Shown here piece by piece: positions 3,750 through 63,064 of a stretch of DNA of 64,000 bases. Where the stretch lies: NCBI GenBank assembly GCA_951406725.2, contig OX597814.1, positions 2,914,001-2,978,000 of the forward strand. The letters run 5' to 3'. The stretch's first letter is position 1. The number at the start of each line of letters is the position of its first letter. Source of the DNA: Octopus vulgaris (Eukaryota). The notes below the pieces were generated by a model, which ran no database searches, was not told the DNA's origin, and saw only the letters and a program-made list of their open reading frames with translations. The position numbers were made by a program, and so were the translations under genes.

Positions 3750-4990
3750 TAAATACATACATACACACATACGTACATACATACATACATACATACATAC
3801 ATACATACACACACACACACATACATGCATACACGCACGCACACACATACATACATACATACAAACACACATACATACATGCATGCATGCATGCATACAT
3901 ACATACATACATATATACATACATAGATGCATGCATACACACATACATACATACATACATACATACATGCATACATGCACGCATGCATGCATACATACAT
4001 AGATACATACATACATACATACACACATACATACATACATGCATACATACATGCATACATACATACATATATGCATGCATACATACATACATGCATACAT
4101 ACATACATACATACGTACGTACATACATACATACATACATACATACATACATACATGCATGCATGCATACATACATACATACATACATATATACATACAT
4201 ACCCACACATACATACATACACACATACATACATACATGTATTCATACATACATACACACACACATACATACATGCATACATGCATGCATGCATATATAC
4301 ATACATACATACATACATACGTACATACATACATACATACATACGTACATACATACATACATATATACATACACACATACATACATACATGCATACATAC
4401 ATACATACGTACGTACATACATACATACATACATACATACATACATGCATGCATGCATGCATACATATATACATACATACATACATACATACATACATAC
4501 ATATATGCATACATACAAACATACACACATAACATACATACATACATACATACATACATACATACATATATATATACATACATACATACATACATGCATG
4601 CATGCATACATACATACATACATACATACGTACATACATACATACATACATACATACATACGTACATACATACATATATACATACACACATACATACATA
4701 CATACATACATACATACATACATACATACATACATACATACATACATACATACATACATACATATATATATACATACATACATACATACATACATGCATG
4801 CATGCATACATACATACATACATACATACATACATACATACATACATACATACATACGTACATACATACATATATACATACACACATACATACATACATA
4901 AATACATACATACATGCATACATACATACATACATACATACATACATACATACATACGTATATGCATACATGCATACATACATACATACA
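3750..4990. repeat. (CATA)n microsatellite array with CATG/CGTA/CACA variants
   Basis: Directly visible; the source of the spurious MYVC/HTYI ORFs. Confidence 0.95.
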
Positions 4991-5524
4991 ATTAGCTGCT
5001 TTGCGGATGTTAAAGTAAAGCTGGAGATCAATGAAAAAGAGAACTCCTATACTGAACTATTGAGAAATCTGCAGTTTACTCTATCCAGATTACAAGTTCA
5101 GGTTTATACCTGTAATTATTGGGGAGGGAGCTGAGATATGTAACACACTGCCTAAATACCAATCTTGAGAAATTAGGCTTCTCAAAACCAGAGAAGAGAA
5201 AGCTAATTCGAAGACTACTGTTCCAATCTATCACTGGAACTGTAAAAATCTGTAAAACCTTCCAGAATTTTGTCATTTAAATATATATGAGCATGTCAAG
5301 ATATGTAACTATATGCATGAGAATACATACATGAAACAAAACATACAAATTTGTATACATACATACACACATATATACATGCATAATACATACATACATA
5401 CATAATACATACATGCAAATATCCCCTGTTGTTGATGTTGAAATTTCAATGAAAGAGACTTGGATCTAGGTTAGAAACCAGCTTTTTCTCTAGCGGCAAG
5501 AAATCTTGAAATAAAGCTGAATGA
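4991..5524 (+). mobile_element. 5'-truncated RLE-type non-LTR retrotransposon 3' end within (CATA)n
   Basis: Encodes ISCFADVKVKLEINEKENSY..LYPDYKFRFIPVIIG..LEKLGFSK..SITGTVKICKTF, resembling an RLE C-terminus. The 3' UTR ends AATAAAGCTGAATGA, then CATA repeats. Homologous to 32622-33060. Confidence 0.7.
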
Positions 5525-5694
5525 CATACATACATGCATACATCCATGTGATGGCCGTCCACTCGTGACCTTTACTGACCTTTTGGAACATTGTGCGTTC
5601 AAGGCTACCTTATACTTATACTTACGGCTCCGTTGGTGACTAACAAGCACTGCTCTTGACAAACATATACGACTGCAAACATTGGAGACCAATA

Positions 5695-5820
5695 TACATA
5701 CATACATACATACATACATTCATACATACATACATACATACATACATACATACATACATACATACATACATACATACATACATACATACATAATGCATAC
5801 ATGCTTTCAAGCATACATAC
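5695..5820. repeat. (CATA)n microsatellite
   Basis: Visible tetranucleotide repeat. Confidence 0.9.
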
Positions 5821-6099
5821 GTGCACACGTTCGTATGTCTATGCATATATAGATGTATATATATATATATATATATATATATATATATATATATATATAT
5901 ATATATATATATATATATATATATATATATATAACCGTGTAACGTGTTAGATGACGACGGAGATATTTGAAATGACGCTAACATACCCGACTTACGAATA
6001 CTTAATCACCTCAACAGATCTGCAACACACAACAAATGAAAGAATGATTAGAAACTAATATTACTGATGCTATAAATTAATAATTTAAACAGAACTAAA

Positions 6100-59699: not shown

Positions 59700-61560
59700 A
59701 ACTGCACTCAATCTCAAAAGAGGTATATAAAAACAGAAGAGAGCTTAACCACCCTAATTATGATGATGATAAGGAGGGCACACCAACCCATTTAGGCAGC
59801 AAAAAAGGTGTAAAACAAAAGCCAAACAGGAAAGCTTGAAGGTAATATCGAGAGAGTGGCAAGAAAAACCACTGCATGGACAATAAACCCAAACCAGCTG
59901 GGGAAGCTGATGTAGATATGAGAATTCATCAGTGGCTGCTGAGTAATGGTTTGAAAGTCAAATCAGAAGGATTTATCGTAGCGGCATGTGATCAGCGGTT
60001 TCTCACTCGGGAGTATCAAGCTAATGCCATGCATAGTGCGGTAGACATAAAGTGTAGACTCTGCATTGACAAACTTGAGAGTATGGAGCACATTGTCGCC
60101 GGTTGCTCAGTCGTTGCCTCATGTTATATCCTATTTCTTTACTACCCACAAGGAGTTAAACACAGAGGGGACAAACAAGGACAGACAAACGGATTAAGTC
60201 GATTACATCGACCCCAGTGCGTAACTGGTACTTATTTAATCGACCCCGAATGGATGAAAGGCAAAGTCGACCTCGGCGGAATTTGAACTCAGAACGTAAC
60301 GACAGACGAAATACCTATTTCTTTATTACCCACAAGGGGCTAAACACAGAGGGGACAAACAAGGACAGACATAGGTATTAAGTCGATTACATCGACCCCA
60401 GTGCGTAACTGGTACTTATTTAATCGACCCCGAATGGATGAAAGGCAAAGTCGACCTCGGGGGAATTTGAACTCAGAACGTAACGAGAGACGAAATACCG
60501 CTAAGCATTTCGCCCAGCGTGCTAACGTTTCTGCCAGCTCGCCTCTTGTTATATCCTTACGCCTCAAGTATCATAGTACGGTTGATATTGTCGACGATAG
60601 ATTAAAGAACACACTGCAACAGTGTTATAACAATACAAAAGAGAAACAGCAACAGTAAAAACCACGTAACGAACCAATACTCAATATTTCCATCGCACTA
60701 ACTCGAATTTTAAACTGTACCTGGACTTCCAAGACCAAACTGCGCCGTTCAAGAATTTCCATTTCCAGCGACTTCGAGGGCCACCTCCCAGTGGTGTCGG
60801 GCGTCAACGAAGAGCCCTCGACTACAAGACGACTAAAGTTTTTTTTTCGATTATCTGGGGTCTCCCGCTCCTAAGCCCTAGACCATCACCTAATCACCCT
60901 TACCCGTCTTATTGCTTAACAACAACAACAACAACAACAACAAGACCAAACTACGAACTGACGACTATGTCAGACCGCTACTATTCATATGTAGGGGTTC
61001 CGTTTCTCGTCAGAGAGTATCTTACTTTCGCCACAACACCCCTACAGAATATAAAACAAGGCATGATCGTGTTGGAACAATACATGCACTAGAGTGTATG
61101 CCGCCACTGTGATATCCCGCACCCTAACCACTGGTATGAATGCCATCCAGAGCCAGTCACTGAAGGAGAGAATATTACCATCTCATGGGATTATGAGATA
61201 CATACAGATAGGCAAATAAATGATAACAGACCAGATATCGTCATCAACGACGTAAGATAAAAACCATGCCTGTTAATTGATAAGACAATGCCTTCTCATA
61301 GAAACATTTCCGCAAAGGAATTTGAAAAGCTGGCGAAATATAAGGACCTTGAGATTGAGATGTCTAAGACGTGGCAATCTCCAAACCAAAATCATTCGAG
61401 TTCTTGCAGGTGCCCTGGGAATGATGGAGGAAAGTAGTGAAAAACGTTTCGAGCAGATCTCTGGGAAATCAACGATCTGAGACTCGAAACATTTTATTTA
61501 CATCAACAGCCCACTTTCTCAGGAAGTTCCACTCCATATAATATATACGTGCTATGCAGA
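59700..61560 (+). pseudogene. Old R4-like ORF relic interrupted by a SINE C dimer and another insert
   Basis: WQEKPLHG, SEGFIVAACDQ..TREY, CRLC...MEHIVAGC (59850-60120); YKTRHDRV, WDYEIHTDR..NRPDIV, EKLAKYKDL (61040-61420). Confidence 0.7.
60130..60545 (-). mobile_element. SINE family C, head plus two tandem units
   Basis: Same AAAGAAATA|GGTATTTCGTC junction (near 60315) as the array at 25156-25943. Confidence 0.9.
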
Positions 61561-61567
61561 TCAATCG

Positions 61568-61932
61568 GAAAAGAAGAAGAAAAAGAAGAAGAAGAAGAAG
61601 AAGAAGAAGAAGAAGAAGGAGGAGGAGGAGGAGGAGAAGAAGAAGAAGGAGAAGAAGAAGAAGAAGAAGAAGAAGAAGACGGAGGAGGAGGAGGAGGAGA
61701 AGGAGGAGGAGGAGGAGGAGGAGGAGAAGAAGAAGAAGAAGAAGAAGGAGGAGGAGGAGGAGGAAGAGGAGGAGGAGGAAGGAGGAGGAGGAGGAAGGAG
61801 AAGAAGAAGAAGGAGGAGGAGAAGAATAAGGAGAAGGAGAAGAAGAAGAAGAAGAAGAAGAAGGAGGAGGAGGAGGAGGAGAAGAAGAAGAAGAAGAAGG
61901 AGGAGGAGAAGAAGAAGAAGAAGAAGAAGAAG
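61568..61932. repeat. (GAA)n/(GGA)n polypurine tract
   Basis: Visible, almost pure purine. Confidence 0.95.
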
Positions 61933-62805
61933 GCAAACTATGCTTGATCATAGATATAGCATGCCCAGTTGACAACAAGGTATGCGATAAGGAAGAAAAA
62001 TATTCGATAGATATGACAGGTTAGCTTTGGAGGTTAAGCAGTTGTGGTCGATGAAAAAGGTGGCAGTAGTACCAATAATTGTCGGAGCCCTGGGAGGAGT
62101 GAGTAAAATTATTGAGATCAAACGATAAAAACATTGAGAAGATCAAACGATAGAAACAAACAACTTCAGAAAAATATATATATGGAGAGAATTGAGTCAG
62201 AATAATGTAGAACCTGTGGAACTTGGAACGAGACAGTGGCACCTATTGTGACAAAGTGCCCCAAGTTGGCACAGGTTGTAAACGTTTTACACTGGAAACT
62301 GTGCCAGAAATGGAAATTTGAAGCTGGAAACACAAGGTGCAATCATCGAGCCGAAAAAGTACTGTGGTCGGAAAAATGTAAGGCCTTGTGGGACTTTCCT
62401 TTTCAAACAGACAGGAAATTAGATAATAATAGAAGATGTTTACTGATCGACCTATCATGTCCGTTTGATTCCAGGGTCGTAAGGAAAGAGGAAGAAAAAC
62501 AAAAGAAATACAATCCCTTAAAGTTTGAAATGGCAAGAATTTGGAGCACGCAAACAGTAAAGGTGATGCCTGTAAATAATTGGTGCGTTGGGAATAGGAA
62601 GCCAAAATATAGACAAATGGCTGAAGGCTATTGGAATAGAATGCCTGGTAGAGCTCCTATAGAAAGTTTGTTTCTTGGGGACAGCAAAAATTATCAGGAG
62701 AGTTCTAAGCAATTGAAACTCTGCTGAAAACTTGTGGATACATAAGGACACAGGTAGTAACTCGCAAACCACAAAAATCCAACCAGGAATAAGACTGAAT
62801 TATTG
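61933..62805 (+). pseudogene. Two further R4-like RLE 3' fragments
   Basis: CLIIDIACPVDNKVCDKEE (from 61940); LHWKLCQK...LWDFPFQTDRKLDN..LLIDLSCPFD..KEEEKQKKYNPL (62285-62560); ends at a TAA-rich repeat. Confidence 0.7.
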
Positions 62806-63064
62806 GTAATTAATAATTATAATGATAATTATAATAATAATAATGAGGAGGAGGAGGAGGAGGAGGATGATTGATTGATTTTTATTATAAATGTTAGTAA
62901 TAACAACAATGATATAATTTTTTAAAATCCGTTTGTTTGGATCCGTTAAATATTTATTTTTACTTTGTGCGTTATCGAGTCTCTATTTTGAATACTGTCT
63001 TCGCTTTCATTTATACGCATGTACATATGTGTGTGTGTGTGTACGTCTGTATGTGTCTGTGAGT

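Follow-up and report, generated by a model that had tools for sequence, protein, structure and literature searches.

Do different families of long interspersed nuclear elements (LINEs) each settle in a simple repeat of their own, and can such insertions account for the abundance of microsatellites in octopus DNA? The question is raised by a stretch of 64,000 nucleotides of Octopus vulgaris (assembly GCA_951406725.2, contig OX597814.1, positions 2,914,001 to 2,978,000), referred to below as the window, in which three unrelated LINE lineages occupy or adjoin (TATC)n, (TAA)n and (CATA)n arrays. These groups are distinct in the layout of endonuclease and reverse transcriptase (RT): a Tx1-type family carries an APE endonuclease ahead of the RT, whereas in the Dong group and in a third group, here called the CATA lineage, the RT is followed by a restriction-like endonuclease (RLE). 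The nearest named relatives of the LINE proteins are those of Argonauta hians (67%), Octopus vulgaris (82%) and O. bimaculoides (81% over 32 aa). Tandem repeats detected by TRF cover 15,335 of the 64,000 bases, and the arrays with a period of at most 4 and a length of at least 30 bp (n = 104) total 10,772 bp; repeats thus make up 17-24% of the window. We consider it probable that the repeats were there first, that the endonuclease of each lineage prefers one of them, and that insertion splits the array. The anatomy of the elements, their flanks and orientation, and the repeated TATC 5' junctions of the Tx1-type family were observed directly.

Specific insertion into TATC repeats by the Tx1-type family is well supported. 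A full-length element (14030-20163, forward strand) is preceded by a (TATC)85 array (13691-14029, forward strand; delimited by TRF, the sequence itself and junction contigs) and followed by a (TATC)57 array (20164-20391, forward strand). Its first open reading frame, ORF1 (ATG at 14250, extending to 16386), is spread over three frames and encodes an RNA-binding region and a CCHC knuckle, a combination that characterizes ORF1 of the Tx1 clade; its match to PF00098 (E 0.0017) falls just under the curated cut-off, and its Atlas look-alikes are CCHC and ZCCHC3/RRM-type proteins (0.90-0.93). ORF2 (ATG at 16429, extending to 19864), likewise spread over three frames, encodes an APE endonuclease (PF03372, E 1e-14), an RT (PF00078, E 5e-32) and a zinc-binding domain (PF13966, E 9e-8), and the 3' untranslated region (UTR) terminates with AATAAA and a short A-rich tail. 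The endonuclease matches L1-EN, and a relative (P0125, 45% identical) matches LINE-1 ORF2p with an E value of 3e-70, versus 4e-25 for R2. Judged from the sequence of ORF2, the element is a member of the L1 group; the name Tx1-type is our own assumption, drawn from its layout, as the 240 listed matches include no named reference for Tx1.

The second copy (54295-54527, 233 bp, forward strand) belongs to a related Tx1-type family; it is a 5'-truncated remnant of the 3' UTR, 76% identical to the 3' end of the full element over 107 bp. It lies between TATC arrays at 54257-54294 and 54528-54586 (both forward strand), so that each of the two Tx1-type copies is flanked 5' and 3' by TATC in one shared orientation; the earlier note had placed Tx1 in (TATC)n at two sites, which is borne out. 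Both copies end in an identical 21-nt motif, which has two matches in the window and none in 100 shuffles, and in both AATAAA and an A-rich tail come ahead of the TATC repeat, which is therefore not simply their tail. The 5' TATC flank of the truncated copy cannot be its own tail either. A scan for translated repeats found no TATC-type flank among the 240 listed Tx1 relatives and was uninformative; the few IYLS/YLSI matches in these relatives lie within coding sequence. In metagenome contigs the 21-nt motif gave a single match, taken as chance, in prokaryote-like DNA with neither the element nor TATC, and when prokaryote genomes were searched with the C-terminus of ORF2, none of 59 candidates was confirmed. 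The predicted folding of the tails of this family, and of a short interspersed element (SINE) discussed below, is no better than that of shuffled sequences (z -0.86 to 0.32), and we claim no conserved stem-loop.

The Tx1-type element is present in 20 of the 24 public runs listed, under three species labels. Its junctions were analysed in four of them, i.e. three contig sets and one raw-read run; the listed junctions comprise 18 of 3006 loose ends, 15 of 314 joints and 12 of 118 joint inserts. The raw-read run (X22), which carries the species label of the run that best represents the element, had one read of 12.9 million on the element and was uninformative. Coverage in the three contig sets extends over the whole element, and its depth climbs toward the 3' end, a pattern that many truncated or related copies would produce. 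Contigs crossing from the TATC flank into the first bases of the element, with a 1-base gap at 14029, occur in all three sets; their depth relative to the total at 14029 is 7151/9329 (5 contigs), 1682/5634 (3 contigs) and 715/918 (3 contigs), i.e. 30-78% of the depth at this position. Contig depth is not equal to copy number; nevertheless, these values are far above the typical depth of a single contig (about 50-130 in X1 and X6, 5-12 in X18), so the TATC 5' junction is probably common to many copies. One further contig links TATC repeats to position 19681 and represents a separate 5'-truncated copy. Tx1 families have been classed as target-specific when one sequence class accounts for more than 20% of their flanks (PMC4494074), and TATC exceeds this level both on the two sides of the two window copies and in the 30-78% junction depth, although the sample is small. 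Contigs of other copies carry single-base indels at 17279 and 19592-19594, near the two frame changes in ORF2. These breaks are thus probably peculiar either to the window copy or to the assembly.

Insertion into TAA repeats by a Dong element is also well supported. The 5'-truncated Dong-type (R4 clade) LINE at 36855-38452 (reverse strand), which had been placed in or next to (TAA)n before, does have perfect (TAA)n on both sides, (TAA)29 at 38453-38538 and (TAA)23 at 36785-36854. Its 499-aa open frame covers the end of the RT, a CCHC knuckle and the RLE; it matches PF13966 and contains an RPD...LIDV...KY motif, its longer relatives carry PF00078, and it is about 50% identical to many animal relatives. 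A translated-repeat scan of 120 Dong relatives, itself uninformative, found one (P0112) with a TAA-compatible N-terminal poly-Ile run. Beyond the two arrays, the 3' one adjoins what is presumably the end of a Penelope-like element, and the 5' one borders a fragment at about 38540-38800 that we take to be Tc1/mariner-like.

Older relatives of this copy are less strict. The remnant at 58445-59465 (forward strand), a short R4/Dong-like sequence, has (TAA)28 before and (TGA)21 after it. A decayed Dong-type remnant (59692-61570, forward strand), with a tandem SINE pair inside (60125-60547), follows degenerate TAA and precedes (AAG/GAG)120; a third remnant (61933-62166, forward strand) stands behind (AAG)n and has no 3' array, and a fourth, decayed and R4/Dong-like (62167-62806, forward strand), has no 5' array and is followed by degenerate (TAA)n and (GAG)8. 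Another decayed R4/Dong-like remnant, previously overlooked (5934-6594, forward strand), lies behind (TA)44. R4/Dong-like elements had been proposed to sit in or next to TAA and related trinucleotides at 58444 and about 62800: TAA, TGA and AAG arrays are indeed touched there, by four remnants that do not form one family. Comparison and a tree rule out a single family for the two sites, while the remnants at 58445 and 61933 do belong together (90% over 82 bp). Since five of the seven TAA arrays of at least 30 bp touch R4/Dong remnants, the Dong group prefers TAA; it is not confined to this repeat and spills into mixed TAA/TGA/AAG arrays, where remnants accumulate. The TGA and AAG neighbours may reflect either loose recognition or later drift of TAA arrays. 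The 58445 remnant also contains a piece on the reverse strand (58566-59231), presumably CR1/L2-like although it has no Pfam match; its open frame is 199 aa long, it has a (TAAC)n tail of its own, and it is nested at a short GTAGTA site.

Could such neighbourhoods arise by chance, or by passive build-up in repeat-rich DNA in which slippage later extended arrays to the ends of elements? With LINE bodies removed, the probability that a random point falls inside an oriented repeat is 0.0097 for TATC, 0.022 for CATA and 0.0043 for AAT; for a point chosen at random, an array lies at most 24 bp away on a given side in 24% of cases and on both sides in 17%. A single adjacency therefore means little, and it is the pairs of the same class and orientation that carry weight. 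Passive accumulation has been noted for Waldo-A/B of Drosophila (PMC3812793), and two features of the window would fit it: the cluster at 58-63 kb mixes repeat classes, and a CR1-like 3' piece unnoticed earlier (13301-13690, reverse strand) sits between (TATG)141 and (TATC)85, while its sister at 28372-28932, a non-specific control, has no array at either end. Against this, the probability that two copies share any oriented class by chance is 0.005, or 0.0025 under a 24-bp flank rule; none of 23 BLAST hits of two SINE families (which include fragments and tandem units and are not independent) has the same class on both sides; and high-depth contigs carry the TATC 5' junction in three runs. We therefore regard chance or passive build-up as very unlikely.

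The third group is the CATA lineage, for which targeting of CATA repeats has moderate support. Copy 1 (4991-5523, forward strand), comprising the end of the RLE domain and the 3' UTR, follows a (CATA)310 array (3746-4990, forward strand), and copy 2 (32618-33060, reverse strand) has a degenerate (CATA)18 at 33061-33132, so that the 5' flank is (CATA)n in both. The copies are 86% alike; what they encode is the C-terminal end of an RLE-type protein. They had been described as an RLE family next to (CATA)n at two sites, which is correct for both 5' flanks; the supposed 3' tracts (5355-5414 in copy 1, 32722-32750 in copy 2; about 60 versus 29 bp) are internal, and were ruled out as target flanks, as about 105 shared bases continue beyond them in both copies. 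The true 3' flanks are a short CATA-like run in copy 1 (5524-5548) and a degenerate CATA/TA run below 32618 in copy 2.

In its sequence relationships this family appears to be a separate R4-related lineage. We found 110 relatives, none of them a full-length octopus copy; the longest carry an RT and can be aligned to Dong-type proteins over 883 aa (34%), and a distant full-length relative (P0311, 44% identical to the fragment) matches the Dong-type protein P0020 with a pairwise E value of 3e-154 and R2 structures with 1e-24. In a midpoint-rooted tree of 46 rows, in which the window row fills 26% of the columns, the CATA clade stands apart from the TAA-Dong clade (support 99/99 vs 100/99). The lineage thus lies outside the TAA-Dong clade, and TAA does not flank it. 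In a predicted O. vulgaris protein (P0241, 82% identical) the same RLE piece starts directly behind a translated CATC/CATA repeat. Two other relatives with CATA upstream (P0343 and P0349) were rejected as members of the octopus CATA family, outside whose clade they lie, and the CATA run of P0252 was rejected as a target, being the internal tract.

The internal tract brings in an alternative, namely that the elements create the repeats, with a tail or internal tract growing by slippage and no choice of target. The CATA tract differs in length between the copies and is shared by the relative P0252, the CR1-like piece at 58566-59231 has its (TAAC)n tail, RTE LINEs make microsatellites in such a manner (PMC2887409), and an octopus RTE with a microsatellite in its 3' UTR has been reported (PMC9115989). 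This explanation leaves unexplained the arrays located 5' of truncated copies (at 54257, 38453, 33061 and 4990, and in the joint to 19681). Furthermore, the A-rich tail of the Tx1-type copies precedes TATC, and many arrays of at least 30 bp (5/9 TATC/GATA and 9/12 CATA) have no such element adjoining. Repeats made by the elements themselves are thus an unlikely origin for the flanks described here, and prior presence of the repeat is the reading that we retain.

A Tx1-type LINE is also the likely partner of an abundant SINE with a tRNA-like head (21303-21538, 25161-25949, 30172-30403, 60125-60547 and other fragments), since the last 40-50 or so nucleotides of the SINE match the Tx1-type 3' end (33/38 identical). 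The head was judged by eye; ARAGORN and Rfam found no tRNA gene or Rfam family in the window. The octopus OR/OK SINEs may include this family. The SINE also forms head-to-tail arrays of 184-bp units (25211-25948, four units; 60130-60499, two units), in which the tail enters the next unit at one fixed internal site, after GG and before TATTT. Five of its eight tails are followed by TAT, four of them at tandem junctions.

Several observations count against target choice by these lineages. The window holds only two copies per family, and the repeat classes were picked after these had been viewed; target-site duplications, moreover, are unreadable inside periodic arrays. In the public runs, TATC is found in none of the seven upstream loose ends listed, several of which look by eye like diverged coding sequence, and in just one of the 12 listed joint inserts. 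In the SINE whose tail resembles that of Tx1, none of the eight tails leads into (TATC)n, and the R4-like remnant at 5934-6594 follows (TA)n. As regards the CATA lineage, the true 3' flank of copy 2 is degenerate and CATA is common (4.5% of background bases). Its upstream flanks were counted in 108 of the 110 relatives, two with repetitive, unrelated-looking sequence (P0259 and P0320) having been dropped; 36 had at least 8 non-homologous upstream residues, and CATA/CATC precedes the element in only three of these, two of which lie outside the octopus clade. Another relative (P0284, 54%) has (TG)n upstream, and in P0244 (67% identical to the CATA piece) the upstream repeat is oriented the other way, on a flank too short for the count of 36.

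How far does this preference go? The earlier note saw each family in its own repeat and suggested that duplication of the target at each insertion may help to drive microsatellite density. The first proposal does not hold for the R4/Dong cluster, and the window lends no support to the second. One family (58445 and 61933) borders TAA, TGA and AAG, and strict partitioning is further contradicted by the remnant behind (TA)44 and by the CR1-like piece between arrays. The rarer classes are often touched (5/7 TAA and 4/9 TATC/GATA arrays), and every insertion makes two arrays of one; nevertheless, only 18 of the 104 arrays adjoin or fall within the ten Tx1/RLE remnants, and among the commonest classes the figure is one of 39 (TA)n and none of 20 (CA)n (1/59 together). 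A target duplication of an assumed 20 bp at ten sites would amount to about 2% of the 10,772 bp of array DNA, and such insertions have been said to interrupt microsatellites (PMC3812793). It is accordingly most improbable that the window reflects a guild with strict partitioning, whose target duplications would be a main engine of microsatellite density. The elements can add arrays, either because an insertion divides an existing array or, in the CATA lineage, through the tract that they bring with them. They exploit repeats that are already abundant, a use of microsatellites as a safe landing site that is a standard idea in the literature (PMC4640811), and locally they contribute a few arrays. 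The repeat density does not mainly come from them, and the microsatellite richness of octopus DNA stays unexplained by them.

By analogy with known families, insertion into a pre-existing repeat would begin with a nick in the preferred repeat, for which the Tx1 type would use its APE domain, and Dong and the CATA lineage their RLE domain; the freed end would then prime reverse transcription, as in other target-primed elements, and the completed insertion would divide one array into two flanking arrays. In the CATA lineage the 3' UTR itself contains a CATA tract. In Tx1-type and R1-type elements the APE domain determines target choice (PMC4494074, PMC1950540), and a Myb-like domain at the N-terminus is its proposed counterpart in R4/Dong (PMC7998251).

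Microsatellite homing by LINEs is already known. Waldo targets ACAY, Mino AC, Kibi TC, Koshi TTC and Dong TAA repeats (PMC3812793), crocodilian Tx1 elements target (TTCC)n/(TTTC)n (PMC4494074), and among RLE-type elements Togen targets (TG)n and some HERO families are also microsatellite-specific (PMC4640811). (TAA)n is the target of Dong in most insects, molluscs and cnidarians (PMC7998251, PMC3812793), so that the TAA target is already published for molluscs. The copy at 36.9 kb resembles Dong, DongAg, DongBg and the ostracod Dong1/2 (R4 clade) in its RT-CCHC-RLE layout and in having (TAA)n on both sides; unlike published Dong, the older remnants here also border TGA, AAG and (TA)n, and the copies are truncated and lack the N-terminal Myb-like domain. 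Like Kibi, Koshi and crocodilian Tx1 (PMC4494074), the element at 14030 is of the APE type, belongs to the L1 group, has a CCHC-containing ORF1 and lies in a microsatellite in one orientation; it differs from them in its target, (TATC)n/(GATA)n, which is not a pure pyrimidine repeat, and in its cephalopod host.

The CATA lineage is comparable to Waldo (R1 clade), as (CATA)n is an ACAY-type repeat (PMC3812793); unlike Waldo, which has an APE domain and R1-clade layout, the CATA fragment is the C-terminus of an RLE-type protein apparently related to R4/Dong, and its target would be convergent with that of Waldo. Togen and some HERO families share with it an RLE and the apparent choice of a non-TAA microsatellite (PMC4640811); in contrast to these elements of the NeSL-related and HERO groups, its long relatives align lengthwise with Dong-type proteins. 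In O. vulgaris, Dong-R4 elements are numerous and show recent activity (5 families, 1129 insertions; PMC13282606), and the available portions of the octopus repeat papers report abundant Dong-R4 and L1-Tx1 without naming targets (PMC13282606, PMC9115989, PMC10294476; for further background see PMC4824008 and PMC4758252). Our search, which did not extend to Repbase, the 2004 study by Kojima and Fujiwara, the target figure and supplements of PMC4494074 or the supplement of PMC13282606, found no description of a Tx1 family in GATA/TATC or of an R4-related family in CATA repeats. Both targets may already be recorded in Repbase or by Kojima and Fujiwara. As matters stand, the well-supported TATC target of the Tx1-type family looks undescribed, and the CATA target of the R4-related lineage is probably so.

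Other repeats are also present in the window. There are about ten copies of a non-coding repeat, about 400 bp long, that has a (TACTCTT)n-type end and contains a (CA)n(TA)n tract differing in length (6595-7020, 10792-11196, 27940-28348, 29356-29798, 30572-30998, 33541-33939, 47900-48301 and others); it brings dinucleotide arrays along and may contribute more arrays than the LINEs. A second interspersed family of about 390 bp (196-592, 7394-7766, 8576-8933, 51625-52016 and fragments; 80-96% alike) lies mostly away from microsatellites and served as a control. Decayed sequence and element ends at 33980-35600 (reverse strand), 36653-36757 and 48980-49083 are presumably Penelope-like, although they have no Pfam match, and decayed transposase fragments at 27530-27958 (reverse strand) and about 38540-38800 are, we assume, Tc1/mariner-like. 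A CbtA match at 27530-27955 (E 0.02, under the cut-off) was dismissed as noise.

Taken together, the data allow a tentative picture, possible rather than likely, of an octopus guild of repeat-homing LINEs with two endonuclease classes and two undescribed targets (GATA/TATC and CATA), in which the CATA lineage seeds landing sites and a SINE shares the tail of the Tx1-type LINE without its TATC specificity. Short reads are poorly suited to mapping polymorphic insertions within microsatellites, and activity of such elements could be overlooked for this reason; few non-reference Dong insertions were found with a short-read caller (PMC9115989). Microsatellite-homing LINEs are known mostly as one family per host. 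If target choice by the three lineages is borne out, GATA/TATC and CATA would join the list of LINE targets, and three lineages with three targets in one genome would constitute a natural panel for the study of target change in both APE and RLE endonucleases.

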